Sequence record: PV805630.1
From: a phage
Length of the DNA: 64,000 bases
Reading direction: 5' to 3' (one strand)
Positions 9,097 to 64,000 of this stretch are shown one piece after another. The position numbers and the translations under genes were made by a program. The number at the start of each line of letters is the position of its first letter. Positions within the stretch are counted from its first letter, which is position 1. The notes under the pieces were generated by a model. That model searched no databases, was not told the DNA's origin, and worked only from the letters and a program-made list of their open reading frames with translations.

Positions 9097-9302
9097 GAGT
9101 AACAAATCGTTCTGAAAACACTGAAGTAACTTTCGGTGATGTGCAACCTGCTAACGGTTTTATTTATAACCAGTCTGTGTGTTTAAAGATTTACTTACCT
9201 GATGGTAAACCTGCTGCTGTTGCTGTAGAGACAGGAAAATCATTCTGTCTATCAGCAAGTACTTTTGTAACACCAATAAACCTGGAAGCATATTACCTAT
9301 GA
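9093..9302 (+). CDS. Hypothetical protein (69 aa)
   Basis: ATGA overlap with upstream gene. Confidence 0.45.
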   Translation: MRVTNRSENTEVTFGDVQPANGFIYNQSVCLKIYLPDGKPAAVAVETGKSFCLSASTFVTPINLEAYYL

Positions 9303-21206: not shown

Positions 21207-21695
21207 ATGGAGTCATATATGAATTGGCACGCTTTATTTGAATACATAGATGGAAAGCTCTATTGGAAAGTTAATCCATCTATGGCAGTGCGTATAGGAC
21301 ACGAAGCAGGGTCCATAAATGGAGATGGTTACATTCAAGTAGGTTACAAAGGCCATGTTTATCAAGCACACATAATTGTGTGGGAAATGCACAACGGCCC
21401 GGTTCCACCAGGAATGGTCATAGACCATGACGACAGGAACAGAATCAATAATCGAATAGATAATTTGAACTTAGTTACTCAGTTGCAAAACAATAGAAAC
21501 AAGTCCAAAAGTAAAAGAAACACATCTGGTGTTACTGGTGTGTACTGGCACAAACGTGACCAGAGATGGGTAGCATCAATCAGGATAGAAGGTAAGCTGA
21601 AACAGTTGGGTCAGACTACCTGTCTGGAGGAAGCTATTAAATTAAGAAGGGAAGCTGAAATAAAACATGGCTTCCATAAAAACCATGGTAAATAA
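21207..21695 (+). CDS. HNH homing endonuclease with AP2 DNA-binding domain
   Basis: IDHDDRNRINNRIDNL HNH motif; GVTGVYWHKRDQRWVASIRIEGK AP2-type domain; alternative ATG 21219 has better RBS. Confidence 0.8.
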   Translation: MESYMNWHALFEYIDGKLYWKVNPSMAVRIGHEAGSINGDGYIQVGYKGHVYQAHIIVWEMHNGPVPPGMVIDHDDRNRINNRIDNLNLVTQLQNNRNKSKSKRNTSGVTGVYWHKRDQRWVASIRIEGKLKQLGQTTCLEEAIKLRREAEIKHGFHKNHGK

Positions 21696-23568: not shown

Positions 23569-25386
23569 ATGCGTTACATCACCTCTCAGGATACTGGCAA
23601 GTATCCTATTGCTATCCTCGGTCATCAAATCCGAAGGGAGGAGATGATTAAAACCTACCTGCTGCCTTATGACCTAAGCATGGAAGATTTCATCTTCCTT
23701 GAACTTCATTCTGCCCCTGGCAAGAAGAAAACTCCTGCAAGGGAGATTAAGGAGTTCATACAGCAGGAACTGCAACAAGTACTGGATGATGCAGAGACTC
23801 AATACATTATCTGTACCGATTCTGACTACTTTAAAATACTGACTAAAGAAGCTAAAGCAGAAGCTAACCTCGGCTATGTTTGTGACTCAGTATGGGGTAA
23901 GCAGAAGGTTATCTATACACCTAGTTACAGACAGGTCTTTTACGACCCACCAGTAGTGAAAGCCAAGATTGCTCAGGGTATGGATGCATTACTTAACCAC
24001 ATTCGTGGGCAGTATGCTGAACCAGGACAGGGAATTATTGAGTTTGAAGCCTATCCGGATACACCCGAAAAGATTAAAGCCTGGTTAGACCAGTTGCTTG
24101 AGATGAATAAGCCTCTGGCTATAGACATCGAATCATTCGGTTTAAAGCACTATAACGCAGGTATAGGAACTATTACGTTCTGTTGGAGTAAGACACAAGG
24201 CATAGCCTTTAATGTGGACTACGAGCCGATTAAGGGGGCTACTGAAGCCCCTTATGGGCGTATTAACAGGAATGATGTTGTTCGTAACCTGTTACGTGAG
24301 TTCTTCATTAAATACACTCAACGGCAGATGTATCACAACATTAGCTATGACGTGTACATACTTATCTATCAGTTATTCATGGATAACCTGATTGATACAG
24401 AAGGCTTACTGCATGGCATGGAAATCATGCTACGTAACTGGGACTGTACTAAGTTAATCACCTACCTGGCTACTAACAGTTGTGCCGGTAATCACCTTAG
24501 TCTGAAAGATCAGGCTCAGGAGTATGCTGGTAACTATGCTCAGGATGACATTAAAGACATACGTCTTATTCCTAATGAGCAACTGTTACGCTACAACCTC
24601 ATTGATGGTTTGTGTACGTGGTACACCTACGAGAAGCACTGGGATACTCTCATTGCTGATGACCAACTGGATGTTTACAACAACATCTTTAAACCAGCCT
24701 GTGAAGACATTATTCAGATGCAGTTAACCGGTATGCCCATGAATATGGAAACCGTTAACCAAGTAGCTGAAGAGATGGAAACTGACAGGAATCAGGCTCT
24801 GAAAACTATTCGTGAGTCTAAGCTCATGAAGAACTTCACCCTGATGCTTCGGCAGGAATGGGTAGACGATAAGAATGCTAAGCTTAAGAAGAAGCAGGTA
24901 ACACTGGCTGATTGTGACATCGAGTTTAATCCTAATTCAGGGCCACAATTACAGAAACTGTTATTTGATTATATTGGCTTACCGGTCCTTGGTCTTACTA
25001 AGAGCAAGCAACCTGCTACTGACGGTGACACTATTAAAGCACTGCGTACACATACGCAGAGTGAAGATGTTAAGGAACTGCTCAATGCACTTATCGACTA
25101 TAAACTCGTGGATAAGATTATCACTAGTTTTATACCAGCTTTCAGGAATGCCCAACCGGGGCCGGATGGCTGGCACTATCTGTTCGGAAACCTCAATCTG
25201 GGAGGCACAGTCTCCGGTAGGCTATCGGCTTCAGAGCCAAATCTACAAACAATTCCATCCGGCTCTAAATATGCCAAGAAGATTAAGAAATGCTTCGAAG
25301 CCCCACCCAGTTGTTACTTGCCAAACAGGAATAAGCTGGATACATTAATCCAGTCCCTGAAAAATACAATTGGTGGTGCCGAATGA
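23569..25386 (+). CDS. DNA polymerase (family A), N-terminal fragment: 3'-5' exonuclease plus N-terminal part of polymerase domain
   Basis: Exo I LAIDIESFG; Pol I-like SGRLSASEPNLQTIP and KKCFEAP just before the stop; catalytic motifs A/B/C absent from this ORF. Confidence 0.85.
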   Translation: MRYITSQDTGKYPIAILGHQIRREEMIKTYLLPYDLSMEDFIFLELHSAPGKKKTPAREIKEFIQQELQQVLDDAETQYIICTDSDYFKILTKEAKAEANLGYVCDSVWGKQKVIYTPSYRQVFYDPPVVKAKIAQGMDALLNHIRGQYAEPGQGIIEFEAYPDTPEKIKAWLDQLLEMNKPLAIDIESFGLKHYNAGIGTITFCWSKTQGIAFNVDYEPIKGATEAPYGRINRNDVVRNLLREFFIKYTQRQMYHNISYDVYILIYQLFMDNLIDTEGLLHGMEIMLRNWDCTKLITYLATNSCAGNHLSLKDQAQEYAGNYAQDDIKDIRLIPNEQLLRYNLIDGLCTWYTYEKHWDTLIADDQLDVYNNIFKPACEDIIQMQLTGMPMNMETVNQVAEEMETDRNQALKTIRESKLMKNFTLMLRQEWVDDKNAKLKKKQVTLADCDIEFNPNSGPQLQKLLFDYIGLPVLGLTKSKQPATDGDTIKALRTHTQSEDVKELLNALIDYKLVDKIITSFIPAFRNAQPGPDGWHYLFGNLNLGGTVSGRLSASEPNLQTIPSGSKYAKKIKKCFEAPPSCYLPNRNKLDTLIQSLKNTIGGAE

Positions 25387-26039
25387 TTGGAAAGAAATTC
25401 AATAGATTGACAATAGTAAGATTCAGTCACAAAGACAAATACTATGCAAAGCATTGGGAATGTCTTTGTGACTGTGGGAACACTACTATAGTCAATATTC
25501 AAAAATTAAAGAGTGGTCATACAAGAAGCTGTGGATGTTTACACAAGGAACGCCCGGGCAACTACAAAGATGGGCGTTCCAAGGAACTCCTATATAAGAT
25601 TTACTACGGTATTCTTGACCGCTGCCATAATGAAAAGTGTTCCACTTATTACAAATATGGAGCCAAAGGCGTAATTGTTTGCGACGAGTGGAGGAATTCA
25701 TATGAAACTTTCCGAGAATGGGCATTATCTTCTGGCTATAAAGTAGGTCTTAGTATTGACAGGATTGATTCTTACAAAGGGTACTCTCCTGACAACTGTA
25801 GGTGGGCAGATAGAAGTACCCAACAAACTAATAAGAGGGTTTGGAGTACAACTCCTTACGTTAGTTACAGTAAGTCGAAAAATAAATGGGTAGGTAGAAT
25901 TACCCATTTAGGTAAGAGAGTAGAAATCCTAGTAGATAAAGATTTAGATGCTGTTATGAATGCGGTTATTGCTTATGTATTAGCAAATAACATGGTTGAA
26001 CAGGAGAAGGTACTTCGTAATGCAGGACTTATTAAATAA
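25383..26039 (+). CDS. HNH homing endonuclease inserted in the DNA polymerase gene
   Basis: LSIDRIDSYKGYSPDNCRW HNH_3 motif; Cys cluster CLCDCG...SCGC; AP2-like C-terminus NKWVGRITHLGKRVEIL; ATG overlaps polymerase stop. Confidence 0.8.
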   Translation: MIGKKFNRLTIVRFSHKDKYYAKHWECLCDCGNTTIVNIQKLKSGHTRSCGCLHKERPGNYKDGRSKELLYKIYYGILDRCHNEKCSTYYKYGAKGVIVCDEWRNSYETFREWALSSGYKVGLSIDRIDSYKGYSPDNCRWADRSTQQTNKRVWSTTPYVSYSKSKNKWVGRITHLGKRVEILVDKDLDAVMNAVIAYVLANNMVEQEKVLRNAGLIK

Positions 26040-26991
26040 ATTAGTTAGCATAAAAGATAGAGTAACCCTGGATGACTATGATGAATTAATGCAATTAGCT
26101 AGTAAATATGACATGCAGGAACAAGTGTCTGATTGCTTTAACTATGAGGGGGGTTGGTTGTTCTGTGGCCTCGATTTTGCATCCTTAGAGGATCGCATAT
26201 CAGCCCTAACAACCAAAGACCCTAATAAATTGCGTGTATACACTGACGGGTTCGATGGACATTCACTCAGAGCTAAATTTTATTTCGGGGAACAAATGCC
26301 GGATATTGATGACTCTGTGGAAGGCATCAACTCTATACAGAAAAAATATAAGTCATTACGTAGTGAATCGAAAGCACCTACTTTCTTATTAACCTACGGA
26401 GGGACTTATATGGGCTTAATGAAAAACTGTGGTTTCTCTGAAGAGAAAGCTAAGTTAATCGAATCCAGATACCACGAAATGTATACAGTTAGTGATGCGT
26501 GGGTTCAGTCTAAGCTAGACGAAGCTGCCAAAACTGGTTATGTAACTGCTGCATTTGGTTTGAGAGTGCGTACTCCTTTACTGGCTCAGGTATTACGTGG
26601 GACATGTAAGACTCCATATGAAGCAGAAGCTGAAGGTAGGACTGCTGGTAATGCCTTGGGGCAAAGCTGGTGTCTACTTAATAACCGTGCTGGTTCAGAG
26701 TTTATGCGTAAAGTCAGAGCCAGTGAGTTCAGATTAGATATACGTCCTAGTATTCACATTCATGATGCTCAGTACTTCATGATTCGTGACAATATGGATA
26801 CCTTGCAATTCACGAACAAGCATTTGGTGGAAGCCGTTAACTGGCAAGACCATCCTGATATTGCTCATCCAGAAGTTGGTTTGGGTGGGGAACTATCCTT
26901 GTTCTACCCAACGTGGGCTAACGAGATTGAGATTCCAAATCACGCTACCCCAGAAGAAGTTCATCAAATAATTCAAAAGGCATTCGCATGA
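25996..26991 (+). CDS. DNA polymerase (family A), C-terminal fragment: palm and fingers with motifs A, B, C
   Basis: Motif A DFASLEDRI, motif B SESKAPTFLLTYGG, motif C IHIHDAQYF; homology starts about residue 50 (EGGWLF); start codon uncertain (TTG 25996 or ATG 26020). Confidence 0.8.
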   Translation: MNRRRYFVMQDLLNKLVSIKDRVTLDDYDELMQLASKYDMQEQVSDCFNYEGGWLFCGLDFASLEDRISALTTKDPNKLRVYTDGFDGHSLRAKFYFGEQMPDIDDSVEGINSIQKKYKSLRSESKAPTFLLTYGGTYMGLMKNCGFSEEKAKLIESRYHEMYTVSDAWVQSKLDEAAKTGYVTAAFGLRVRTPLLAQVLRGTCKTPYEAEAEGRTAGNALGQSWCLLNNRAGSEFMRKVRASEFRLDIRPSIHIHDAQYFMIRDNMDTLQFTNKHLVEAVNWQDHPDIAHPEVGLGGELSLFYPTWANEIEIPNHATPEEVHQIIQKAFA

Positions 26992-35568: not shown

Positions 35569-38500
35569 TTAGTTTACTAAGTTCATCCAAGGGTTCAGGT
35601 TGTGAGCACGAAGCCCCTGACCAAAGCCCCATGAGTAATCCAGACTGCCCTTAGCAGCAATACTAAAGATGTTGTCCTGAATAGGCAGGCCAACATTACC
35701 AAACATGGTAGGAGTTGGAGCCAGCATAGCCATTGCTGCATGTACCGGGTTATTACGAATCATGGACACTGCAACTTTTGCAGAACGAATCTTAAAGTTG
35801 TAGAACCACATTAAACCAACACTCTCCATATACCCACGGAAACGGCCCGGCAGACGGTCATAGTTAATGAACTCTTCGGTTACACGTCCCAGTGCTTCTT
35901 CACGAGTCTTACCTTTACGCTGGGTCAATTCATCATAGATGATTGCTTTAGCGATAAAGTCAGAGTACTCAACCGTCTTCTGGATACCCTGGAACAGAGC
36001 AGTATCCTTAGTGATAAGTGCATAACGACCAGCAGCACGTACAGACTTAGGTAACTTATCCGCCAGCTTTTCCATGTATTCGTGAAGTTTACCTTCAGTA
36101 ATCAGGATGTCATCACGACCAATACCAGCATCTGCAATTGAAGAGAACTCACCAGCTTCTATCAGAGGCCAGATACTCATACGCTTATGGCTATCAGTAA
36201 TGGACTGAATCTCAGCCTTAAGTTTACGAATCTGGTTCGGGTTAGTAGCTGCACGTAATTCTGCTTCTGCATCTACCTGACGTAAACGAGATTTAAGGTA
36301 TTGGTTAATCTCAGCAGTCTTCCGTGGAATGCTCTTAGCAATGTTCTTAACCGGTACACCACGAGCAACCATCTGGTAAAGGTTAGCCAAAAAGTTAACA
36401 ACAGGTACGACTACTGACTTAACTACAATCAGAGTCTTAGCATCTTTAACTAAATTTTGAACCAGGTTCTCACCACCCATTAAGTACTTATAGGCACGGT
36501 TACCGGCTAAACCCAGAATAGCTTTTTTAAAAGTATTAAGCGTTTCCGGGGACCAACGAGAATTACCAGACCAAGCATCACCAATCGAAGCTGCACGATA
36601 GCCAAGTGCATCATTCAGCATGTCACGACGTACCCACAGTTCACCCTCACCAAACAGTTTTTCTGCTTTCCGTCGAGTTTCGCTGTTCATCAGCTTAAGT
36701 GCATCAGCAGTTACTGGGTCCAGTTTAGAACCAAAAAGGTTCACGTACTGGGACTTATTAGCAGCAGACATCTTAAGGTCTTCCTTGTACATGCTATACA
36801 GGTTCTCAATCAGCATATCGTTGAAACGCTGAGCCTTAGCTTCTTCCACCTGACGTCCACGCCATACACCAATTGCACGGGCAAGATGATTTTCACCTTC
36901 AATATGCTTCAGCATATTAGGGTTAATTGATTGCTCATAAGCAACCACATCACCTTTAGCATTATATATGGGCAATAGTGGTTCATTACCACGCTCACCA
37001 CGAGCTAGTGCTTTAGTGATACGGTCTACAGAAGGCTTGTCAGTAATACGACCGGCTACCATGGAACCCATCGTAAAGCCTGTGCCGAGGTCTACACCAC
37101 CAGCAGTATTACGAACGCTCTGTAGGATACCTTGTGAGAATGGAGCCTGTGCCTGTACCGGTGCAAAGTAGTAGCTACTCGATGGACCTCGGTTAGCAGA
37201 GCTACCTTGATAAGTACCCAGACGAACATAGGACTTCTCTATCAAATCGCCAAACTCGCTATCTTCAGCAACAACCAGACTAACACCCTGTTTAGTCTCA
37301 CTAGGGATATACCCTTTGTACTGGTTCAGGGTTGCACGCATATTAGATTTGGCTTTAGCCATTTCATCTTTACGCTGCCCAACCAGGTAAGAAGTAGCAA
37401 AGTCCATTCCCTCAACTTCTGTCTGAGCCAGTGAAGATAACATCTCACGGTCGGACTTGTTCATTGCTTCCAGTGCATACAGGGTAATAAGTTTATCCAG
37501 TTGAGCTACATCTACAATAGGGCGAGTAGTCTTACGTTCACCCAGCATACGAGAGATTGCAGTAGCATTACGCAGCAAGTTTTTACCGACTGTGCCATTA
37601 ATCATGTACTGAGCCAGTTGCTTAGATTTACGGTTAATCAGAGGCCAGTTACGACCAGCTTGTTTCTGCAAATCTGCTTCCAGCTTATTCACTTCACGGT
37701 CAACAATCTTCTGGTCTGACAGCAGGTCACGAATTTCAGCCAGAGACATGGTGTCACGCAGGACAGCTAAGTCAGTTTTACCCATACCAGTGTGCATTGC
37801 TTTCCACTCATCCTTAGTCAGCTTACGGCTGAACTTAGATGCGATAGTGGTAGGCAGGTGTTCACGGAACTGCTGACGGTCAGCCTGCACCTGTGCACGG
37901 ACTGCTTTAATCAAATCGTATACAGAAGCATTACTCTTAGTACGACCGGTTAAGTCATTAACCAGGTCATGGAAAGGTTGCCATACTTTACCCTGGTTCA
38001 TTGCAACCATAACGCCTTCAGCTACGTTTGCACCATTCTTCTCTGTAGCAATAGCAGCCATTAGTTGTGCAGCATGAGCAGCACCTTTGACCAATGGGTT
38101 TTTGGTATTAGCTGCAACTTCACGAGCACTTTCTAAAACACGAGTAGACAGTACATCAATAGAGTCCACCAAATACTGGTTAGCACGGTCAATAGCATTA
38201 CCACTAGGAGTAGCAACGGAATCATAGAATGACTGTGCATTTAGGCTAGTCTGCATGATTGTTTGAGCCAGTGCATCCATACCTTCCTGTACGTTAGTAG
38301 CTTTAGTATCACCTGCTACACGAGCATTCAGGCTTGCCATTGCAGCAGTACCAATGTTAGTCAGCATTGCATCAACGGTATTCCCAGATTTCTTATCTGC
38401 TTTCATAACAGGAATGTTAGCCAGTACGTTACGTACCTCTTCACTTACCATTGCCAGACCAACAAAGGTAGGCAGTATTGAAGAACGGCCCTGTGCATCA

Positions 38501-44500: not shown

Positions 44501-46848
44501 CCAGAGTTATACGCAGAACGAATGCGTTTCGCATGTTGCAACGCAGAGTACTGTCCTTCATTAGAACGAGACTCGTCGGTTTTAATCTGTTTACTAACGA
44601 TGTCTTGACGACGTAAGCCCAGTTCTTCTGCTTTAGCATCATACTCACGTGCACCCTGTAACAGAGCAGCAGCTGATTGCAGGGCAGCACGTTGACGATT
44701 ATTCAGTGTAATCTTACCCTCACTCGCATGCTTCAGAACCATGTTCACTGAATCTGCATCCAGTACTTCTGGAGACACATCAGCAGCCATAGCAATGTTG
44801 TTTGCTTGGGCTTGGTTAGCTTCTTCAGTAGCTTTCAGCTTACCTGCTTCAGCCTGTTCCTGAATCATAGAATGGATGGCACGGAATGCACGAAGTACTT
44901 TAGGGGTATTCTGTATGTTAGCCATCAGACCGGAGAACTGGTCTACGATTGCAGCAGCAGGAGAACCCTGTTCCAGATTAGCCAGAGCACCTGGGTCACG
45001 GTTAATGAAGCTATCCATAGACATGATGTTGTCATACATCTGGATTGCAGCTTCCATTTGAACGTCAGGGTCTTCAGCAGTATTAACCAGGTCAGCCATC
45101 TTCTGAATAGCTTCTACACGGTTAGTGGAACCAGAAACAGCTTCACGGATTACTGGGTTGGCTTGTTCCAATTCTACCGGGTCAAACTTCATTGCCTGGG
45201 TTAAGTCAGCAGCATACTGAGTAGCAGCAGCCTTCTCTTCTGGAGTGATGTCCATTGCATCTACTGCTTCCTGTACGGTTGCCTGTGCTTGCTCTGCCTG
45301 AGCAACAGCTTCCTGTGCAGCAGCATTAACCGTAGCATCAGCTACAGGGGATGCTTGTTCATTACGCTTAGCAACTTCTTCACCACGTTGAACCAGGATG
45401 TTAGTAAGAGGGGAGGCAGCTTTTGCTAATGTTTTACCAACCAGAGAAGCACCAGCCAGGGTAGTACGAAGAGCAGGTCCAGCAGCAGCACCGGCAGCTT
45501 TAACAGTTGCACCAGGAGCCTGAGCAACACCAGCACTACCGAAGCCATAAAGTGCACCAAGACCTGCTTGCTCACCGACACCTTTGAGGGTATCTCGGGA
45601 TGCATCAACATTTTCCTTGATTGCACGGTTCTGGGCATACTGACCAAAGCCTGACTGAATACCTTCTTCAACTGTTTCACGTAGCATATTGGAACCAGCA
45701 CCAGCCAGTGAACCTACCTTAAGTGGGTTAAGTTCAAAGCGAGATACCAGTGGACCGGTAGCAGCAGCAACTGGAGCAGTTAAGCCAGCAGCAAGGATAC
45801 CTGTTTCAGATGCAGTCTGACGACGTGCTTCATCAGGAGATAAACCATCGGCAATATGTTGTTGGTAAACAGGAGACTTACTTGCCAGTTCTGGATGGGA
45901 CATCTTCATGATTTCAGAAGCAGTCTGTTGGTATGCACCACCAGCTTCCATAGCACCGATTGCAATAGCAGGTGCAGCAACACGACCAGTAGACAGTGCA
46001 ACCTGTGCAGGACGTGAACCTAACCCAGCAGCTAAGGTAATACCCTTAACAGCTTTATCACCACCTACCATTACTTTACCGAGTGCAGATACACCACGGA
46101 TAAGTGGACCACCGGTAAAGAGGGAACCAACGCCTTCACTCAGTCCATCTGAGGCAGCCATACCATTATCAAGTGTGTTAGTAACAGAGTCGAAAGCATC
46201 ACGACCAATGCGAGACAGGGAGGCAACCAAATCGCTCTCCCCGTTTTTGATGTCCTGTTCATAGAGTTTCTGGTTCTTTTGAGCAGAAATCTGGTTCTGA
46301 TTCTGAACAACTTTACGTGTAGCATTCAGTGCATCAGATTGTAGATTGTGTACGCCTTCATTCAACCAATCCATCCCGGAAGCAATGGTTGCCCCGGCAT
46401 TATCATTGACCAGACCTGCGCCAAGAGCAGCAATGCCCCCAAGGGTATTAGCAACACCAAGACCAACACCAGAAAGAGTATCGCCAAATGCTTCTGCGTT
46501 AGTACGCTGTTTAGATAAGTCCTGACGTACAGCATCCGCAGCATTAGCTCGACTATTAAGAATTTGTAGACCTTGCTCATTACCGTATTTATTAATGATT
46601 TCTAATGGGGAGGCTTGAGTGAAGTCTGCCTGAAGTGAACCTGGTTCGAATGCACCGATTCCAAGATTACCTACTCGTCCAGTCTGGAGAGTGTAAGCAT
46701 TCTCTGGGGTTAATTGGAAAGGGCTTTGCCCTTGTGCAGCTTGCTTCTGAGAGGTTGCAGTAGAGACATCGACTTGCTTAGCATTAGTGATGCTGTCTGC
46801 GAAACCTGCCAGACGGTCAAATGTTGACATAGCATGTTTCCTGTTCAA
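35569..46848 (-). CDS. Virion-encapsidated giant RNA polymerase (N4 vRNAP / gp50-like, 3759 aa)
   Basis: Single 11.3-kb ORF, hallmark of N4-like phages; internal T7-RNAP-like motif B RGIAKNPLTITIYGSG. Confidence 0.9.
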   Translation of the reverse strand: MNRKHAMSTFDRLAGFADSITNAKQVDVSTATSQKQAAQGQSPFQLTPENAYTLQTGRVGNLGIGAFEPGSLQADFTQASPLEIINKYGNEQGLQILNSRANAADAVRQDLSKQRTNAEAFGDTLSGVGLGVANTLGGIAALGAGLVNDNAGATIASGMDWLNEGVHNLQSDALNATRKVVQNQNQISAQKNQKLYEQDIKNGESDLVASLSRIGRDAFDSVTNTLDNGMAASDGLSEGVGSLFTGGPLIRGVSALGKVMVGGDKAVKGITLAAGLGSRPAQVALSTGRVAAPAIAIGAMEAGGAYQQTASEIMKMSHPELASKSPVYQQHIADGLSPDEARRQTASETGILAAGLTAPVAAATGPLVSRFELNPLKVGSLAGAGSNMLRETVEEGIQSGFGQYAQNRAIKENVDASRDTLKGVGEQAGLGALYGFGSAGVAQAPGATVKAAGAAAGPALRTTLAGASLVGKTLAKAASPLTNILVQRGEEVAKRNEQASPVADATVNAAAQEAVAQAEQAQATVQEAVDAMDITPEEKAAATQYAADLTQAMKFDPVELEQANPVIREAVSGSTNRVEAIQKMADLVNTAEDPDVQMEAAIQMYDNIMSMDSFINRDPGALANLEQGSPAAAIVDQFSGLMANIQNTPKVLRAFRAIHSMIQEQAEAGKLKATEEANQAQANNIAMAADVSPEVLDADSVNMVLKHASEGKITLNNRQRAALQSAAALLQGAREYDAKAEELGLRRQDIVSKQIKTDESRSNEGQYSALQHAKRIRSAYNSGNFDLASAYLSDFMKFAQHMQNKVGALNEHLISGNADKNKSVHYQALTPTREWVRSRTGLGVNPYDTKSVKFAQQVALEAKTVADIANALATAYPELNVSHVKVTSLDSRLNKPAAQVVKEFRQGGLNATQSQQTNEPVNQVDETPAPVQEDTTTVQSKAKPVVNNKTAPNTVESKSEPEKVSKPKSESTSVPNGPEMKTAEFTGKQQATYMQIGQYFDYNGKEYISLGKDIEGVRAVPSTGGKTIVIPGESTVTGKSDVLTSFKYGKTNVPYVMTPEGRIFSLRSTREVWSSPSQARNDFMNYVRNTFSQPEVTPVQEEKVPKSEKTSPVVDDATPTNEDTIEQPTESERDAYVKENTISQETLNKYGDRRESPWLFADGTVVGSNGDHISLSDVFGHDGYRDMSLDTGAIRSTFYKGSEQPFVSLQLFDNQKLTAEQFNTVQSFVEANNAQILVGVDTSGRNTNNVEKDEVSLAQLKADYTVGGKPLSGMEAVFPVYNNEKTPNQFLKAFTLPEEPKSRTIGSESPLADIKQALSSAARFEAFTQKENNVLAGDVLERYQDLMDFGETLKATLSERLAKFLANKNVGKRFAEGTEANRWVGGKLLNIVEKDGDTFKFNDQLLETAVLAGLQWRLTATQNAAIKDMKDVAAITGVDASLLPESILAEFDNAQTLIEATNSLAQKIESYWGLNRNPNAPLGYTKGIPVAMATEILSSLIEMGAVTESMLDVSEIDPDSNKTIGLYTINKLADKDPINNFLTAIEEAVLVNPEEKTYFGDDIPSVAQTQLRNPAVRNTPEQKAALKAEQATEFRVHMPMVNFYEALGRDGILELMGAGSLNPDLLNENTAKSLEGKNLSVSMAYDSLFGLINQLKEQENGLDTPIHYGYNMTRVGRMQMLGKNNPQSSKLVREAILPTFSTIDLSNENSQAFSDFQLGLAQALGIKVHKMSREAMSENLTKALEGNLKPAVDMMVEFDKSGYLPTDAVDILKSSLGDNKSFVALMALMEYARYLNSDDRANFNTPLYVEADGVTNGPINAMVLMTGGKFTPNWIKNTAKGGLFFGRAGKTMNEHCSIDDNVDLYEASTNGLQFYLNELRTTYRNNVPVMSQMNHLQKLMDLFIKDFNLNEDGTLDLKRGIAKNPLTITIYGSGARGIAGKMVSAITDTIYERLSDVLQARAADPSISPAMAMFGKEAASEADAQAMLDTFLTSMEALTGKIPAKRKGKLFIKEVDGALTGELNPQEFTVSGAALKNLQENMLHFFVEPMRQSIRFTVGEGLMQSTENLQKATQIQSLVLQDMFQQAVQAKLAEKEKDPTWKKGDFLTQKELNEIQKSLSPLAPMIETGLQTFYIAGSENTDVANQVLATNLDDRMRVPMSIYAPSQAGVAGIPFMTIGTGDGMMMQTLSTMKGAPKNTLKIFDGMNIGISDITDASRKANEAVYTSWQGNPIKNVYDSFSKFMKNVDFDKLSDKTIDDIARSALDFEQLSHISRVEGDRQYKIDMIKNSGVNLIERNLRNIALGVDIRHKVMNQVQTTVDQMAAVGAPYVNNGKISLEGLTVDQQVAKLNELFDAELNRRRDAVRASKAEPVKEVPTKEAPVKEVPAMEQVGRVLKSGVRLLSNTAITKLAKEMSPEQQAVLKEIQKSLAAKDYKVVYGTPAQLDAYAIEKNITRPAPEDIEAAEAGNAYGWTNFDDKTIYLVTPSLETLVHELVHASTFESVLAHYEGTPNEAVQNIEDLMNQFLTLDVKDESPAVREAYADALNTINGHLSNGFIEPAMAKAAALNEYMAWGLTNRELIGKQKKTTALKAMVQSVYEAIKRLVFGRKKAPANADDMFSGLLFNSSVVMRGQAPTAAVAKDTTLFHNKAYGDNTRLEELGQTFDKLITNYIGSEPVQQVIREGKFSDAKKHATKVTRDVQAHGFTMNMQEQRLFTNIVAALATEAAISPAALSRAQEYYAHVTKNLTVESFMTDPDSTNPADRYYAQQKFDTIMGANNIEFDAQGRSSILPTFVGLAMVSEEVRNVLANIPVMKADKKSGNTVDAMLTNIGTAAMASLNARVAGDTKATNVQEGMDALAQTIMQTSLNAQSFYDSVATPSGNAIDRANQYLVDSIDVLSTRVLESAREVAANTKNPLVKGAAHAAQLMAAIATEKNGANVAEGVMVAMNQGKVWQPFHDLVNDLTGRTKSNASVYDLIKAVRAQVQADRQQFREHLPTTIASKFSRKLTKDEWKAMHTGMGKTDLAVLRDTMSLAEIRDLLSDQKIVDREVNKLEADLQKQAGRNWPLINRKSKQLAQYMINGTVGKNLLRNATAISRMLGERKTTRPIVDVAQLDKLITLYALEAMNKSDREMLSSLAQTEVEGMDFATSYLVGQRKDEMAKAKSNMRATLNQYKGYIPSETKQGVSLVVAEDSEFGDLIEKSYVRLGTYQGSSANRGPSSSYYFAPVQAQAPFSQGILQSVRNTAGGVDLGTGFTMGSMVAGRITDKPSVDRITKALARGERGNEPLLPIYNAKGDVVAYEQSINPNMLKHIEGENHLARAIGVWRGRQVEEAKAQRFNDMLIENLYSMYKEDLKMSAANKSQYVNLFGSKLDPVTADALKLMNSETRRKAEKLFGEGELWVRRDMLNDALGYRAASIGDAWSGNSRWSPETLNTFKKAILGLAGNRAYKYLMGGENLVQNLVKDAKTLIVVKSVVVPVVNFLANLYQMVARGVPVKNIAKSIPRKTAEINQYLKSRLRQVDAEAELRAATNPNQIRKLKAEIQSITDSHKRMSIWPLIEAGEFSSIADAGIGRDDILITEGKLHEYMEKLADKLPKSVRAAGRYALITKDTALFQGIQKTVEYSDFIAKAIIYDELTQRKGKTREEALGRVTEEFINYDRLPGRFRGYMESVGLMWFYNFKIRSAKVAVSMIRNNPVHAAMAMLAPTPTMFGNVGLPIQDNIFSIAAKGSLDYSWGFGQGLRAHNLNPWMNLVN

Positions 46849-46892
46849 ACTTATATCGTATATAGGTAACCTACTCTACAGTAAGCCAGTGT

Positions 46893-46918
46893 AAGAAAAA
46901 AGCCCCGTAGGGCTTTTA
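46893..46918 (-). terminator. Intrinsic terminator upstream of the virion RNAP gene
   Basis: AGCCC-CGTA-GGGCT with A6 and T4 flanks; T-run on minus strand. Confidence 0.5.
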
Positions 46919-46933
46919 TTAGTATGAAGTATT

Positions 46934-48880
46934 TTAAGGCATTTTCACATACCCAGGTATGCCTTGGGCTTGGCGTATATACCGTATAGCACGCTCCTGG
47001 TTTTCTTTCTCAGCCTCCCGATCTACAGAAGCCTGTGATCGAAAATTACGTGGAGCCAGGTTTTGAGGGTCAGCCTGAACTTGGCCCTGGGCATTTTTAA
47101 GCATTTCAGCAGCTCTACGTACTTGTTCCTGTCGTGCAGGTAACAGTGCAGTAAGTGCAGTCTGCCCAGTAGCAATCTTATTCTGAGTATTTGTCAGTGC
47201 AGCTACGGCAGCATCATATGCAGTTTGTGCTGCCTGAATATTCTGCATAGCCTGAGCACGACCAAGGTTACGTACACTTGCTTCAAGAGGTTCACCACGT
47301 TTTAACCCCTCAATCATTTGGTCTACCTGACGGTCATTAAGTCGCAAGCCATTACCGGCTTCTGAGGTTTTCCCTATAGTTAGGTAATCAACAAGACGTC
47401 CTGTATAACTTTCCGGTACGTTAGTCATTGCACGTTGCATAACAACACCTGCCATAGCAGGGGATACATTAGCACGCTGAGCAATTTTACTGATACGAGC
47501 CACAACCCATTGTTTATCTGCTCCCTTAAAGTCACCCTCTAGTAATCTATTAGCAACTTCCCCAACAGTAGAAGTGTCATTTAAGGCAGGTAAATAATCA
47601 GGAGCAATACTTCCAGCATTGTCCTCCATAGAACGAGTACCAATCATACCGGTAGCCAGAGTAGATACTGCCTGATTGCCCTGAACCATAGCAAGCGGGT
47701 CAGCCTCTACCTCAGCTTGAGCAATAACAGGTTTCATCTCTTCCCATGTCTTATCCTTATAAGCACCTGGGGTAGAGTTAGGCAGAGCATCCCAGGTATC
47801 TTTAAGGTTACCGTTCTTACGAGCCTCGAAGATAGCCCTACCAATCTTATCCTGGTTCTCGGGGGAAAGAGGCTGGCTTTGCCAATCTGGACCAAGAACT
47901 TTAGGAGCGAAATATTTCAGAGTATCTTGGTTAATCTGGAAAGCGCCCACAGGTGAAGCACCTAGTGTCGTCTTCATACTATCCTGATGCTTAATTACAT
48001 CACCAATACTCATTTGAGTAATAGGAGTAGATGTACCAGTAAACCGGTAAGTAACATCATAAGGAGAACCCTGACGAGTACCGGCAGTACCTGGTGCAGA
48101 CGTAGCACTAGCATTGTTACCGTAAACACCCGGATATGCTCGTGCAAGCATTTCCTGTAAACGTGCCTGTGCAACCGGAGACAGTTGCTTACTATAAGAT
48201 TCTGCCAGAATACGGGCATCGTCAGCATTCTCAGCACCTCTAGTAATCAGTGCCATTACACTCGTAGCAGCCTGATTATCAGCATCATTACGTTGAGCAA
48301 CACCTAAATCAAAACGGTTCTGTGCCTGATTGATAGCCTGACCGCCCTGACCTTGTAGACGGGTCAGCAGCTCAAGCTGTTGGTCAGCAGGAAGTGCAGA
48401 CAATGTATCACGTGTCTGTTCCAACGCAGTATTAATACGATTCTGGTCACCAGACTGGTATGCCTCAGACAGTAAACGGATAGCAGGAGAAGCATTATCT
48501 AATGCAGAATTAATATTCCGTAAACGGTCAAAGTTATAAGTATTGTAGTCATTGGTTCCCTGCTGACCTTGTTGAGTCAGCAATGTACCTGCTCGCTCAT
48601 CCAGATTTTGAAGGGTACGCTGGTTTATCAATGAACGGTCAACCCCCTGAAATAATGCACCAGATGCCAAAGCATTACGGTACTCAGTAGGGTCTTGGTA
48701 CTGCATAGCATTCATCATGACGGCATTGCCAGCCTCCTGCTTGGCAGCGTTCTGGAAATTACCCAGTGCATCACTTAAGCCGGAGGTGGCGTTACCAATC
48801 ATGCTACCAAATGTGCGAATGCTGTCACCAACTCCAGAAAAGTTAGGTGCATCAACATTACGCCATGTAATTTGAGCCAT
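46934..48880 (-). CDS. Virion-associated protein (N4 gp51-like position, 648 aa)
   Basis: Gln/Ala-rich repeats N-terminally; C-terminal segment GAFQINQDTLKY loosely resembles lytic-transglycosylase G-x-MQ motif (weak). Confidence 0.6.
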   Translation of the reverse strand: MAQITWRNVDAPNFSGVGDSIRTFGSMIGNATSGLSDALGNFQNAAKQEAGNAVMMNAMQYQDPTEYRNALASGALFQGVDRSLINQRTLQNLDERAGTLLTQQGQQGTNDYNTYNFDRLRNINSALDNASPAIRLLSEAYQSGDQNRINTALEQTRDTLSALPADQQLELLTRLQGQGGQAINQAQNRFDLGVAQRNDADNQAATSVMALITRGAENADDARILAESYSKQLSPVAQARLQEMLARAYPGVYGNNASATSAPGTAGTRQGSPYDVTYRFTGTSTPITQMSIGDVIKHQDSMKTTLGASPVGAFQINQDTLKYFAPKVLGPDWQSQPLSPENQDKIGRAIFEARKNGNLKDTWDALPNSTPGAYKDKTWEEMKPVIAQAEVEADPLAMVQGNQAVSTLATGMIGTRSMEDNAGSIAPDYLPALNDTSTVGEVANRLLEGDFKGADKQWVVARISKIAQRANVSPAMAGVVMQRAMTNVPESYTGRLVDYLTIGKTSEAGNGLRLNDRQVDQMIEGLKRGEPLEASVRNLGRAQAMQNIQAAQTAYDAAVAALTNTQNKIATGQTALTALLPARQEQVRRAAEMLKNAQGQVQADPQNLAPRNFRSQASVDREAEKENQERAIRYIRQAQGIPGYVKMP

Positions 48881-53653: not shown

Positions 53654-54856
53654 TTACAGAGGAGCAACAGTCTTAATCAGAGCCAGACGTTCCGGACGTT
53701 TAACCAGGATACCGTAGTACCACTTGATGGAACTGAAGCCAGTCTCACCATACGGGTCATTACGGTCAGCAGTTTCTCGACCAGGCATCTTAGTCATGAT
53801 GGAGAACTTAACAGACTTACCATCAGTCTGGAAACCAATGGTAGAGAAGGAGTCATCACCAACTACCAGCATCGGGAACACGTCATAGTGTTCTTCGCCA
53901 CTAACCATAGAAGAACGGTAACCTGGGTTAGTAGAGACTTGTGCACCAGCACCTGCCCAATGCAGCATCTCAGGAACCTGGATAATACGGAACTTGTCGA
54001 TACAACCAATCTCACCATTCATCAGAGTACCGGCATCAGCATAGTGCTGAACCTCGATGAATGCTTTGTTACCGAACAAGTCTTTCATCGCTTTCAGTTC
54101 TGGAACTAGTTCAGAACCAACGTACATTACACGAGTACCACCAAGTACTTTGGTATCGGTAAGTTTAGAACCAGTGATGATAGTAGTCTGAGTCGGAGTA
54201 CGGTTCTCAGTAAGAATCTGGTCAAGACGCATCAGGTTCTTATAAGAAACTACAGACGGGGTAGCACCTTCACCAGTGATGGTAGCATCGGAGGTAGCAG
54301 CACCTGCATACAGTACAGTACCAGCAGCAGCCAACAGGTCTTTCTGGAGAACAGCTTCAGTCAGCTGTACAGCACCGTTCATCAGTTCACGAGACAGGTG
54401 TTCTTTCAGTTGGTCATCAGAATCAAAGTCCAGGGACTCTTGAGTAAATTCGTAGAAGAAACCGAACTTATGAATGGAACCTTCACGAGACAGACGAGTA
54501 AAGCCTACACGGTTAACACGACCACCGTTCTCTGTCAGCAGAGGCAGTTTAGAAGTGATGTTACCAACGTCTCGGGAAGAACCATACAGGTTACCATTAA
54601 CGATGGTAGCACCATTAGCATCAATACCCTGGTCGTTGATGTTCTTATCGTCAAGCAGTGGGACGTACTCATACACCTTAACAGTCTTACCGTAGTTCTT
54701 CGGCATGTTAATGGTGTTAGCCAGTGGCATGAAGTACTGGTCTTTACGGGACTGAATAATAGCTTTCTTCAGCCAGTAATAGGTATTCATCTGGTCGGAA
54801 CCAGCACCATCAATGCTAGATTTCTGGCCGTCAATTGGGGCGTTATAGTTTAACAT
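53654..54856 (-). CDS. Major capsid protein (N4 gp56-like, 400 aa)
   Basis: Size and position between scaffold-like and downstream structural genes match N4; strong hairpin downstream. Confidence 0.7.
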
Positions 54857-54872
54857 ATCATCTTATTCCTGT

Positions 54873-56093
54873 TTAAAGACTACCCGGTACTGGGAGTTTA
54901 GCGAAATCTTCGTCACTCATAGCGAGTGGGTTTACAATAGGTGTTGCTTTACGTGTAGCAGCCCGATTAAGGGAAGCTGCTTTAGCTTGCTCACTGTTAG
55001 CCAGAGTCTGCTTAGGTTGTGCTACACGCACTACCGGCTGAACCACTGGCTTAACTGCTTGTACCGGTTCTGGCTTAGCCACTCGGTTAAATGCCCCTTG
55101 CTGTGTAAGGAGGTTACCGACGTGGTTATAAGCCTGAATGAACGGAGTACCTACCGGAATCTGGCCTAACATTTGAAGACGGTTCACTTCGTTTGCAATG
55201 GTGTCATAAATACCATTCTCACGTTGTTCGTGAATAGTCTGAAGTAGGCCACGATTCTGGTAAAGAGCTTCTTTACTGGCAGCATCCCATGTCGAGCCGA
55301 TAACACCTAATGTAGCTTGTCCTTCTTGAGTAGACTTTAAGTCGTCAATTTCGGTTGCAAAATCTGCTTCGGTGTCGGTAACACGGTGATTGCCACCCTG
55401 GTAGTTAATTTCCTCATCTGGATTAAAGTCCAGAGGATCTGTACCAGAGTCTTTGAGCAACTTCTTAATGGCTTCTGGATTCTTTTTATCCAGGTCAATC
55501 AGGAAAGAAAGTTTATCCTCATCCATTAAACCGTTGTTCTGTAACATCAGCATTACCTTACGGTAAGGCTTTAGTTCTTGCATCTTGCGAGTATAGTTAG
55601 CACCCATCTGCATCAGGCTAATGGCCTCCTCCGGTGAACGGGGAGTAATCACTTTGCCGTTAGCTTTAAAAGGAGCCATCAACTTCTCGTAACCTTCTTT
55701 ATAGTTGAAGTCAGCAGGCAGACCTTCAGACTGTTTGCCTTCTTCTTTCTGTTCCTGGCCTGGTTCAGTAGTAGAAGGTTCAGCTTTAGTAATCGGCTCG
55801 CCGTTACTATCAACTTCTGTGTCAACAACTTTATCACCAACTTTATCAGAAGTTAAAGGATTTGCTGAATCTTCTTCATCAGGTTCGGCTTCAGGGGGGG
55901 TTTCTTCGGTTGGTAGGTCTTCAACAGCAGGGGTGTCAACTTCTTCTTCAGGAGTCTGTACGCCGTTGGTTTCTGGGTTGTTCTGAGTGGAAGTATCTTC
56001 CTCAGCAATAATTGCTGGGGCTTCCATATTCAGAATCTCATCATCCGACATTGCGAGAATGTCGGAAGCTGTGGTTGCAGCTTCCGTAGTCAT
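54873..56093 (-). CDS. Scaffolding-like acidic protein (406 aa)
   Basis: Highly acidic low-complexity N-terminus; between portal and capsid genes. Confidence 0.5.
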   Translation of the reverse strand: MTTEAATTASDILAMSDDEILNMEAPAIIAEEDTSTQNNPETNGVQTPEEEVDTPAVEDLPTEETPPEAEPDEEDSANPLTSDKVGDKVVDTEVDSNGEPITKAEPSTTEPGQEQKEEGKQSEGLPADFNYKEGYEKLMAPFKANGKVITPRSPEEAISLMQMGANYTRKMQELKPYRKVMLMLQNNGLMDEDKLSFLIDLDKKNPEAIKKLLKDSGTDPLDFNPDEEINYQGGNHRVTDTEADFATEIDDLKSTQEGQATLGVIGSTWDAASKEALYQNRGLLQTIHEQRENGIYDTIANEVNRLQMLGQIPVGTPFIQAYNHVGNLLTQQGAFNRVAKPEPVQAVKPVVQPVVRVAQPKQTLANSEQAKAASLNRAATRKATPIVNPLAMSDEDFAKLPVPGSL

Positions 56094-56112
56094 AGGAAAT
56101 ATCTCCGGTTAA

Positions 56113-60555: not shown

Positions 60556-60581
60556 ATAAAAATAACCCCGCCGAAGCGGGG
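60556..60581 (-). terminator. Intrinsic terminator downstream of tailspike gene
   Basis: CCCCGC-TTCG-GCGGGG (minus-strand reading) followed by TTATTTTT. Confidence 0.55.
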
Positions 60582-60609
60582 CATAATTTTAGTTAACTGC
60601 TATGCCAGA

Positions 60610-63165
60610 TTAGCCCACATTACCAATAGTCATGCTGTACTCAAGAGTAAATAACTGACTAGAAGCAGACGTGTTATATAATCCTACATAACCAGATGTA
60701 GCTACAGTAGTAGAGAATGCAGACGTAGTTGCCGTGCCATCATCTGACTCTACGGTAAAGGTATGAGCACCAGTAGAGGCGGAAGTATATTCCCATACTT
60801 TAAAGCCTTTATCTTCACGAGTAGTATCACCAAATACTACCCAGTCAGTTGGGTTAGTATTGTTGAACGTACCGATGCACATATTACCTGCAGCATTCAC
60901 ACCGACTAACACACCAACATTAGTAAGTGGGTTATAGTTAAGTGCAATATAGGTGTTTTTCTTAAGACCTTTCGGTACAGCCAGATAACCTACAGATGCA
61001 CCATTATAAAGGTGAGAGTCTGCGGTTTTACTGAACTGAGTACCAGACAAAACTTCACCAAATACACCATAGTCATTGGCGTTAGACTGCTTCATTACTG
61101 GAGCAGGGCGGGTCATGTTAGGTTCTTTGCTAAGACGAACCATCGGCAGCTTAACCCCATCCGTTTTGTAAGAACCAAACTTCAGCATAGGGAAGTAAGC
61201 ATCAGTAGGACTACCATCAATGATATAACGGATAAAGTTCAAACCTTTACGTAATCGCCCCATATAGGTAGTAAGGGTTTTGCCACCCCCAAAGTAACTC
61301 ATGGCAGTCTTGCCATTAAGCACGGTACGGTAGGCATTAATTTGAGTATTACGCTCTTGGTATTCACCGGACTCAATCAATGCTTTGCCCGCAGGAGACT
61401 CAACACGGATGTTGTGCTGTTGCCCAACAACGGCAGCATTAGTCCATGGTTCTAGAAGGGATACAGTCATACCTTCTTCTTCACACCATACCATTGTGGT
61501 CATGGTTACATTTTCATTAGTTACACACTTAGACAGAAAACGGAATACGTTCAGAGCAGGAGCACCAGATACAGGTACATACTGTGGTGCATAGTGAGTA
61601 CCGGAAGGATACCCTACACAATCCCAATAGTTTTCTACAGCAGCCTGAGTGATCATATCCCCCGGTCTAACACGACGACAGTACTTATTACCAAGGGTCT
61701 GCATATACATCGCATTACCCATAGCCATTTGTCCAAGTTCTTGTGGGTGAGTAGTATCCCAGGTTCCATCCTTCTTAACATAGTAGTAGTACCCAGTTTG
61801 CTCATTGCGGCTACTTGCACTAGTCAGATTTGGTCCCAAGTTAAAATACTCAACACCTAGTTTATCTGCCATGTACTTCTTAGTACTAAGCTCAAATGCC
61901 ATACGTACTGAGTCATTATCGTTGACTGTTACAATACCAACGGCACAACCGTAGCCCCATGCTTTACGAACAAACTTGTCAATCTGGTCACGGTAGGTAG
62001 CGATACTAGCACTACTGTCATTCCAACCCATTGCAAGGATACATACACGAGGAGCTTCTGCACCATAGCGTGTGTTACCGAAGAACCCACGGTCGAAGTT
62101 ACGATAGCCCCAACCGTCGGATAACTTCTTACCAGATACGGAACAGTTAGCTGATTGGTAAATAGTTTCACCACTACGACGAGACTGTGTGAGCAACAAG
62201 CCATTCATCCAGTGTTCAGTCCATGAGTGGGAACCCCCAGATAAAGAATGATTGTATGTACTTGGGGCATCTAAGTCACCATCTGAGTTAGTTGGCGGAG
62301 AACTCCAATCCTGTTTACCCCATGCACCATCAGTAATGGAATCGCCAATGATACCGATACGACAAAATGTCTGGTCACGGAATGCACAGTATATTTCGTC
62401 ATTAACGGTTTTATTGTTACCATTCATTGAAGCAGCAATGTCAAACGTATGGTCCTTTGCATACCACTGGTTTTTAACAATAAGTTTGCCTTCCCCAACA
62501 AACTTACGGACATCATCATCGGGTAGTAAGTTACAACGAATGGTAACACCCTTAGGGATAAAGATTTTACCGGGGAAAGCATAAGCAGCTGCACGGTTAT
62601 CCGTAGTAGTATTAACAACAATGCCAGGAACATCATATACGGAAGTAGAACCAACAGGAGGAATTAGCCCATTGTTTAATTCTTGTCGTATTAATTCATC
62701 ATTAGCAATAACCCATGCAGTGGGAGAAATACCACCTGCACTAAACGGAGTAGAGTTAAGTGGTACGCTCTTGGGTAACCCACCAGCCCAGCGATACTGC
62801 GTGCCATTATGAGTAAGCAATTCATTCTTGGTCTGTATAACTGAGCCAGAAGTAAACGTATCCGGTAAAGTTACATATTCTTTGCGAGTAACAGCTAATG
62901 CACCTAAGTCCACGCTACCAGCAGAGTGAACTAATACACCAGCAGGACTAAGGCTTATAGCAGTAACCCCTGAACCAATGTCAGCAGGTAAGGAATAAGC
63001 ACGTTGTGTCTCTTTGTCGTAGATGACTTTATATCCACTTAGTACAGCACCCTCTGAGAAGTAAACAACCTCTGATTGCTTAACCCCGAAGTGACGGGCT
63101 ACTGCTTGTTTATTGGTTAAGATTCCAGTTGAACCCTTACCACCTTGTGAGAACATTTCGTTCAT
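60610..63165 (-). CDS. Tailspike/tail protein with central SGNH-hydrolase (esterase) domain (851 aa)
   Basis: SGNH blocks GDSITDG, GWND and DTTHP in order within the central region (about nt 61700-62400). Confidence 0.75.
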   Translation of the reverse strand: MNEMFSQGGKGSTGILTNKQAVARHFGVKQSEVVYFSEGAVLSGYKVIYDKETQRAYSLPADIGSGVTAISLSPAGVLVHSAGSVDLGALAVTRKEYVTLPDTFTSGSVIQTKNELLTHNGTQYRWAGGLPKSVPLNSTPFSAGGISPTAWVIANDELIRQELNNGLIPPVGSTSVYDVPGIVVNTTTDNRAAAYAFPGKIFIPKGVTIRCNLLPDDDVRKFVGEGKLIVKNQWYAKDHTFDIAASMNGNNKTVNDEIYCAFRDQTFCRIGIIGDSITDGAWGKQDWSSPPTNSDGDLDAPSTYNHSLSGGSHSWTEHWMNGLLLTQSRRSGETIYQSANCSVSGKKLSDGWGYRNFDRGFFGNTRYGAEAPRVCILAMGWNDSSASIATYRDQIDKFVRKAWGYGCAVGIVTVNDNDSVRMAFELSTKKYMADKLGVEYFNLGPNLTSASSRNEQTGYYYYVKKDGTWDTTHPQELGQMAMGNAMYMQTLGNKYCRRVRPGDMITQAAVENYWDCVGYPSGTHYAPQYVPVSGAPALNVFRFLSKCVTNENVTMTTMVWCEEEGMTVSLLEPWTNAAVVGQQHNIRVESPAGKALIESGEYQERNTQINAYRTVLNGKTAMSYFGGGKTLTTYMGRLRKGLNFIRYIIDGSPTDAYFPMLKFGSYKTDGVKLPMVRLSKEPNMTRPAPVMKQSNANDYGVFGEVLSGTQFSKTADSHLYNGASVGYLAVPKGLKKNTYIALNYNPLTNVGVLVGVNAAGNMCIGTFNNTNPTDWVVFGDTTREDKGFKVWEYTSASTGAHTFTVESDDGTATTSAFSTTVATSGYVGLYNTSASSQLFTLEYSMTIGNVG

Positions 63166-63314
63166 ATAAACCTCTTTGTTTTTCTAGGAAACCCCTCCGA
63201 AGAGGGGATAGTGTTACAGGGAAACAGATGCATGGAATAACTTTCCTGATACCACCCATTCAGAAAGGCTATCTTAGAGATAGCCTTTAAGAAAAATTGA
63301 GTGAAAAGCAGTGC

Positions 63315-64000
63315 TTACGCACTGCCTAATACACGTTGGGATAATGCTGCGATACAGAAGCAAGACAGTTCTGCATAGTTAACACCATACATATCTGCTT
63401 CAGCATCATAGGTAACGAGAGAGTAATCCAGAGTATTTAACCCATGTTTCTCCATAATTAGCATGACTTCTTGCGCCAGACAACCGAAGTGATACTTGTC
63501 TGCTTCCGTATCTGTCCACTTGAACTTAATCATGCTAGAGGACAACTCTAGGCCAGCATGGTATTCAGCCTTGGTAATCTCGTATACATCCTTGCATCGC
63601 CCATCAGACGTCTGAATAACACCATTTGTAGCAAAGACTGTCTGCCATCTACGGCTAGATTGACCACAGGTTCTTGTGTTATCAATCTGAGGTGCTACAC
63701 TCCCATCTATACGGAGATAGTTATTCTCACTCTGAGCACCACCCATAGTACCTTCTATGAAAGGCAAGCCAGTGTGATTGTTAATAATTAGCGTATTAGA
63801 CTTCTCACTATCAATACCTGCACCTGCATCCGCACCAATGAAGATGTTACCAGATCCGCTAGGTAACTTACGTCCTGCCCTTGCTCCAACAATAGTATTC
63901 AACTCACCAGAGGTAAAAGAGGTTAAGGTGTCAACACCAACAGCCGTGTTAAAGCTACCTTCCATCGTACCAGTAAAACTGTTACTCTCTGAGCTTACAC
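63315..64000 (-). CDS. Tail fibre protein, C-terminal part with intramolecular chaperone (peptidase S74-like); N-terminus beyond window
   Basis: TSDGRCKDV matches the S-D-x-R-x-K autoproteolysis motif; ORF open to window edge. Confidence 0.6.
   Translation of the reverse strand, partial: VSSESNSFTGTMEGSFNTAVGVDTLTSFTSGELNTIVGARAGRKLPSGSGNIFIGADAGAGIDSEKSNTLIINNHTGLPFIEGTMGGAQSENNYLRIDGSVAPQIDNTRTCGQSSRRWQTVFATNGVIQTSDGRCKDVYEITKAEYHAGLELSSSMIKFKWTDTEADKYHFGCLAQEVMLIMEKHGLNTLDYSLVTYDAEADMYGVNYAELSCFCIAALSQRVLGSA

Follow-up and report, generated by a model that had tools for sequence, protein, structure and literature searches.

The 851-amino-acid tail protein encoded close to the end of the phage DNA in record PV805630.1 raises the question of whether the host is recognized through removal of O-acetyl groups, by an esterase such as that of coliphage G7C, or through attack on the polysaccharide itself by a glycosidase or lyase. 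The stretch analysed here, 64,000 nucleotides long and referred to as the window, represents the leftmost 64 kb of the genome of a Gamaleyavirus (G7C-like, N4-related, Schitoviridae). It is colinear with G7C from the left end of the genome to position 63210, at ~96% identity and with a few replaced or inserted segments. The gene of interest is the following:

60610..63165, minus strand: gene 63.1, an ATG-started ORF of 851 aa, predicted to encode a branched-tailspike subunit and O-antigen O-acetyl esterase, orthologue of G7C gp63.1

Gene 63.1 is an orthologue of G7C gp63.1

To place the protein we compared it with sequences of known structure and with other phages. A PDB sequence search matched it to the crystallised gp63.1 of G7C (4QNL) from end to end and without gaps (1-851 versus 1-851, E=0, 1946 bits), and it also matched phrog_21878 (tail fiber) at E=0. 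The gene shares 98.6% nucleotide identity with positions 61262-63817 of the G7C record HQ259105.1, annotated as gp63.1, from which it differs at 36 nucleotides; of the 50,697 phage records compared, no other matched it over its whole length. The G7C protein (AEL79675.1; PDB 4QNL) has the same length of 851 aa, the same five domains and the same catalytic residues as the window protein, and its gene, like that of the window, lies between genes 63 and 66 with a stem-loop on either side. The two proteins differ by 14 substitutions in 851 residues (98.4% amino-acid identity), located at positions 22, 38, 52, 62, 141, 205, 505, 583, 592, 597, 732, 770, 796 and 832. Because no change falls within residues 206-504, the SGNH domain is identical to that of G7C in protein, and R421 is kept. 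Eight of the 14 substitutions (505, 583, 592, 597, 732, 770, 796 and 832) lie in the galactose-binding-domain-like (GBD-like) and C-terminal domains. The exact 851-aa sequence was absent from a collection of 15 billion proteins.

Judged from these comparisons, gene 63.1 of the window is an allele, or orthologue, of G7C gp63.1 and not a mere analogue. The original prediction had brought in G7C as an N4-like phage with an esterase tailspike; the esterase tailspike was right, while the relationship, at 98.6% nucleotide identity, is closer than the analogy it had proposed. At the sequence level, the window protein shows all the features that define an esterase tailspike of the G7C gp63.1 type.

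Domain architecture

Five domains were delimited in the protein, all encoded on the minus strand:

62665..63165, minus strand: residues 1-167, N-terminal attachment or branching module common to CBA120 TSPs and Det7-type spikes, including Tail_spike_N
62434..62631, minus strand: residues 179-244, G7C tail fibre 'domain 3' (PF21562 Gp63_3rd_G7C, E=8e-41)
61666..62382, minus strand: residues 262-500, SGNH (GDSL) esterase domain (PF00657 at 270-485)
61171..61626, minus strand: residues 514-665, galactose-binding-domain-like module (PF21988 G7C_GBD, E=1e-106)
60622..61161, minus strand: residues 669-848, C-terminal domain of G7C tailspike (PF22245 G7C_C, E=2.9e-123)

Within the first module, Pfam places Tail_spike_N (PF18668) at residues 91-153 (E=2.5e-14). 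This is the part that the protein has in common with a wide range of spikes: the PDB matches 4OJ5, 5W6F, 6NW9, 5W6H and 9D84 were limited to residues 1-190 of gp63.1, the structures of CBA120 TSP1-4 and Gp48 of 9D84 matching the N-terminal 167-190 residues alone. Likewise, the DNA of the N-terminal module on its own was matched by more than 100 Kuttervirus/Gamaleyavirus records.

The SGNH domain retains its catalytic residues

The SGNH motifs of gp63.1 are GDSITDG (residues 274-280), GWND (380-383) and DTTHP (470-474), which represent blocks I, III and V in the canonical SGNH order, while the Ser-Gly of block II is found at 344-345. The original prediction had read the three motifs, in the correct order, from an 851-aa ORF, and this reading is exact at 60610..63165 on the minus strand. 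PF00657 (Lipase_GDSL) covers residues 270-485 with profile positions 1-207 of 208 (E=8e-6, 26.6 bits versus a gathering score of 23.6); PF13472 stayed under its cutoff (15.6 versus 32.9). Since PF00657 scores above its gathering threshold with the profile nearly fully covered, and since 4QNL aligns over residues 1-851, the set of motifs is not a product of chance.

We then asked which residues are conserved in an alignment of seven phage tail proteins, composed of the window protein, G7C gp63.1 and five proteins found by tblastn, from SKA64 (Phapecoctavirus), Pisces (T7-like Kayfunavirus), Aeromonas phage ST4, Snoke (Kagunavirus) and Pectobacterium phage CB1 (Schitoviridae). These five are 25-53% identical to the window protein. 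The nucleophile S276 of block I, the oxyanion-hole residues G345 (block II) and N382 (block III), and D470 and H473 of block V are all present in gp63.1 and invariant in the seven sequences, across identities of 25-98%. The stretch G274-D-S276-I-T-D-G280, the pair S344-G345 and residues G380, N382 and D383 were also invariant in all seven. The loss of Ser, Asp or His on alignment, which the original prediction had singled out as decisive against it, was hence not observed: the triad and the oxyanion Gly and Asn are conserved in every sequence aligned.

When the esterase-domain profile was searched alone, it recovered 4QNL 262-500 at 1.4e-117, gave weaker matches to the SGNH-like regions of the phage fibres 9D84 Gp48, 9LNA and 9D80, and gave only marginal ones to the bona fide SGNH/CE2 esterases 7TOG, 4XVH and 3BZW. 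As to the three-layer alpha/beta/alpha, flavodoxin-like fold that characterizes SGNH hydrolases, a single-sequence AlphaFold2 model of residues 245-510 was uninformative (pLDDT of 34), and the fold has been solved by experiment for the 98%-identical protein (4QNL).

The DNA of the esterase segment (61600-62599) is 99.7% identical to G7C, versus 95.7% for the aligned block 34600-63210. We considered this as a possible gene-specific signature and rejected it, given that 36100-36599 is 100% identical and 54100-56099 ~99% identical; the figure fits the general mosaic pattern of the genome.

Relation to other SGNH spikes

Spikes and fibres carrying an SGNH domain with conserved S-G-N-D-H residues are found in E. 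coli phages SKA64, Pisces, Penshu1 and Snoke, in Aeromonas phage ST4 and in Pectobacterium phages CB1, Possum and PP99. In SKA64, Pisces and Penshu1 the GBD and C-terminal domains are also common with gp63.1, at 51-53% identity over residues 245-851. All these spikes differ from the window protein in that the identity of the esterase domain is merely 25-53%, and in that their N-terminal adaptors fit other virions (T7-like, Phapecoctavirus, Kagunavirus and Cbunavirus). Several groups of phages have by now been found to carry SGNH deacetylase spikes, among them Pectobacterium phages PP99 and Possum, temperate Klebsiella phages and epsilon15 (PMC10743462; PMC9569702). Possum gp66 and the PP99 spike are OPS deacetylases by experiment (PMC9569702; PMC10743462).

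Predicted activity and host specificity

The activity of gp63.1 has been described for G7C. According to papers that cite Prokhorov 2017 (PMC6393563; PMC10743462; PMC9569702), the protein strips the lateral O-acetyl groups from the O-polysaccharide of E. coli 4s and leaves the backbone untouched, deacetylation seems processive and is required for infection, full resistance is seen both in rough mutants and in acetylation-deficient wclK mutants, and the gp66 fibre links gp63.1 to the virion, forming a branched adhesin. The O-antigen of E. coli 4s is of the O22 type, with extra glycosylation (10.1101/542787). Phages G8C, 10Gb and St10y, which carry the G7C-type gp63.1, grow only on wild-type (acetylating) E. 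coli 4s (10.1101/542787), and phages with this type of gp63.1 do not grow on the wclK acetylation mutant (10.1101/542787; PMC10743462).

Taken with this literature, from which the activity derives, gene 63.1 of the window almost certainly encodes the distal, enzymatic subunit of a two-protein branched receptor-binding apparatus, a predicted deacetylase of the host O-antigen. By analogy with what is published for the 98%-identical protein, the N-terminal module (residues ~1-167) would dock gp63.1 onto the gp66 fibre, which in turn would attach to the virion. The S276/D470/H473 triad, together with the G345/N382 oxyanion hole, would then hydrolyse the lateral O-acetyl ester of an O22-like O-polysaccharide, probably in a processive manner, and the sugar backbone of the host O-polysaccharide (type strain E. 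coli 4s) would stay intact. Both beta-sandwich domains of the C-terminal part, the GBD-like one and G7C_C, most likely bind carbohydrate; the eight substitutions that the window allele has there might, in principle, affect how the substrate is bound. Deacetylation would be needed for the phage to adsorb productively and to trigger DNA delivery, driving or licensing irreversible adsorption, and the host range would therefore be set by the presence of an O-acetylated O-antigen. The original prediction had proposed that the gene may indicate the host serotype, and the literature bears it out, as phages with a G7C-type gp63.1 need the O-acetylated, O22-like O-antigen of 4s (10.1101/542787; PMC10743462).

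A different outcome would be that the SGNH domain is structurally kept and that the allele has shifted to an acetylated O-antigen or capsule other than the O22-like one of 4s, as a consequence of the eight substitutions in its C-terminal carbohydrate-binding domains, in which case the 4s serotype could no longer be read from the gene. The eight changes do fall within residues 505-832, and the R421P substitution alone has been reported to switch the host specificity of gp63.1 in vitro (10.1101/542787). Yet R421 is intact in the window protein and the catalytic domain is identical to that of G7C, most of the changes are conservative (L/I, R/K, S/A, A/T, V/A), and all published phages of the G7C set with a G7C-type gp63.1 are strictly specific for wild-type 4s (10.1101/542787). 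We consequently regard a shifted specificity as very improbable.

The idea that gp63.1 is instead a polysaccharide depolymerase (glycosidase or lyase) with incidental GDSL motifs can appeal to the prevalence of depolymerases among phage tailspikes and to the Alt63-type allele of the same locus, which is an OPS depolymerase (10.1101/542787), but it was rejected as having practically no chance of being correct: no beta-helix, pectate-lyase or glycosidase family was detected in gp63.1 with Pfam, Lipase_GDSL exceeds its gathering score with the SGNH catalytic residues all conserved, and the 98%-identical protein of G7C does not cleave the backbone of the OPS (PMC10743462; PMC6393563). The choice of an SGNH esterase or deacetylase over a glycosidase, made in the original prediction, is hence sustained by the PF00657 score, by the lack of any glycosidase family in this search and by the full-length match to 4QNL.

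The deacetylase assignment also distinguishes the window gene from the alternative allele just mentioned. The Alt63-type allele (gp63.1A) has the locus and the conserved N-terminal docking part in common with the window gene (10.1101/542787). Its C-terminal part, on the other hand, is an O-polysaccharide depolymerase and not an esterase, and it gives growth on the non-acetylated strain 4sI (10.1101/542787; PMC10743462). The window carries no Alt63-type allele.

A swapped gene 66 module beside gene 63.1

Gene 63.1 belongs to the adsorption locus: synteny with HQ259105 places it between the N4-like genes 63 and 67 (the latter beyond the window), with gene 66 upstream of it. Downstream of gene 63.1, in the sense of the coding strand, are orthologues of gp63, the holin, the N-acetylmuramidase, the Rz/Rz1 spanins and the portal protein. 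Three further features of the locus are relevant here:

60565..60582, minus strand: GC-rich stem-loop followed by a T-run, GCCCCGCTTCGGCGGGGT TATTTTT, found by a terminator scan directly after the stop codon of gene 63.1
63191..63206, minus strand: stem-loop CCCCTCTTCGGAGGGG between genes 66 and 63.1, seen in the sequence
63315..64000, minus strand: 3' end of the gene 66 allele (last 227 codons; frame open to 63998, running off the window)

The first hairpin is the counterpart of the 'repeat_region' annotated in G7C at 61218-61233. The one at 63191-63206 is a second copy of it, located 25 bp upstream of the start codon of gene 63.1. The stem-loop of G7C reads CCCCGCTTCGGCGGGG and that of the window CCCCTCTTCGGAGGGG, so that one stem pair has changed compensatorily, from G:C to T:A. 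The homology with G7C, as defined by the BLAST block, ends at position 63210 of the window, right beyond this second stem-loop. In the G7C set of horse-faeces phages, in which two gp63.1 alleles (the G7C-type deacetylase and the Alt63-type depolymerase) and four gp66 alleles have been described, gp66 module swaps have their boundary at the conserved stem-loop that separates gene 63.1 from gene 66 (10.1101/542787).

The last 227 codons of gene 66 are unrelated to gp66 of G7C. They are 87-90% identical in nucleotides to the C-terminal tail-spike ends of Raoultella phage vB_Ro_P3a and of several 44-kb Vectrevirus-like E. coli podophages, match phrog_1171 (5.6e-37) and carry Peptidase_S74 (PF13884, E=5.7e-5, 23.8 bits versus a cutoff of 22). 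The C terminus of gp66 is not G7C-like; it is a tail-spike end of the Vectrevirus type that bears an intramolecular-chaperone domain (Peptidase_S74). The 77-nt intergenic stretch that follows the gene 66 stop (63251-63327) is ~83% identical to the K5/LL11-type Vectrevirus cassette, which constitutes the terminator and spacer between the two tail-spike genes of those phages; for this reason, the swapped gene 66 module seems to have arrived with its own downstream intergenic cassette. The adjacent region 63169-63328 is 94% identical to an unannotated spot in two 147-kb phages, alia and J-01. This intergenic DNA may serve as a mobile cassette through which spike modules recombine.

As gp66 has a different C-terminal module, the phage may infect a wider range of hosts than G7C does. 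A further possibility, which we consider doubtful, is that gene 66 provides a branched adhesin of dual specificity and that the substitutions in the carbohydrate-binding domains of gp63.1 are co-adaptations to the new partner or to a new host O-antigen.

A split DNA polymerase gene and other segments foreign to G7C

Outside the adsorption locus, the window departs from G7C at a number of places. The gene for the family-A DNA polymerase is interrupted by a segment of 889 bp (25308-26196) that G7C lacks, giving the following arrangement:

23569-25386: DNA_pol_A part, 605 aa (profile positions 11-150)
25383-26039: HNH-endonuclease ORF lying between the DNA polymerase parts (phrog_374, 5e-62)
25996-26991: DNA_pol_A part, 331 aa (profile positions 131-303)

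Within the G7C set, an insertion of ~800 bp that holds a homing-endonuclease ORF has been reported for 10Gb only; it is non-splicing and divides gene 39, for the DNA polymerase, into two fragments that are translated separately (10.1101/542787). Compared by description only, 10Gb shares with the window a G7C-type gp63.1, a non-G7C allele of gp66 and the insertion in gene 39 (10.1101/542787). Judged by these shared features, the window most probably belongs to 10Gb or to a phage very closely related to it. What interest remains in the window is due to its mosaic adsorption locus and its split polymerase, which have likewise been described for the G7C set.

Two other segments also hold endonuclease ORFs:

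21207-21695: HNH_3 endonuclease ORF (PF13392, 1e-19), inserted upstream of the helicase gene
5795-6409: ORF for an endonuclease VII-like protein (phrog_1035), at the position of the gp15.1 HNH gene of G7C

The former lies in the segment 21163-21694 and the latter in the segment 5786-6471, neither of which has a counterpart in G7C; no DNA similarity was detectable between the ORF at 5795-6409 and the G7C gp15.1 HNH gene. The region 46600-48599 is locally divergent, with 73-87% identity to G7C versus ~96% elsewhere. It takes in the greater part of the gene for gp51 (66-kDa virion protein) together with the 5' end of the gene for the virion RNA polymerase, and its divergence suggests a recombined allele. 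Three short segments of the early region (88-323, 2161-2488 and 9104-9298) had no match in G7C, the first of them lying within the terminal-repeat region. Scans of the 64-kb window found no tRNAs and no Rfam families.

Significance

The esterase tailspike is in itself already known, its protein, crystal structure, activity and role in infection having all been published. The added value of the window is hence modest, and consists of a second natural allele, with an SGNH domain identical in protein, next to a swapped gp66 module. The case illustrates that a receptor-binding protein of the esterase type can be called correctly from sequence alone, and that the sequence lets the host specificity be predicted, namely E. 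coli with an O-acetylated O22-like O-antigen, such as strain 4s. The position of gp63.1 beside the swapped gp66 module illustrates modular exchange at a conserved stem-loop and, if the adhesin were of dual specificity, this would represent a natural transfer of a tailspike module across families, the module having passed from Autographiviridae into Schitoviridae with a stem-loop as its defined breakpoint.
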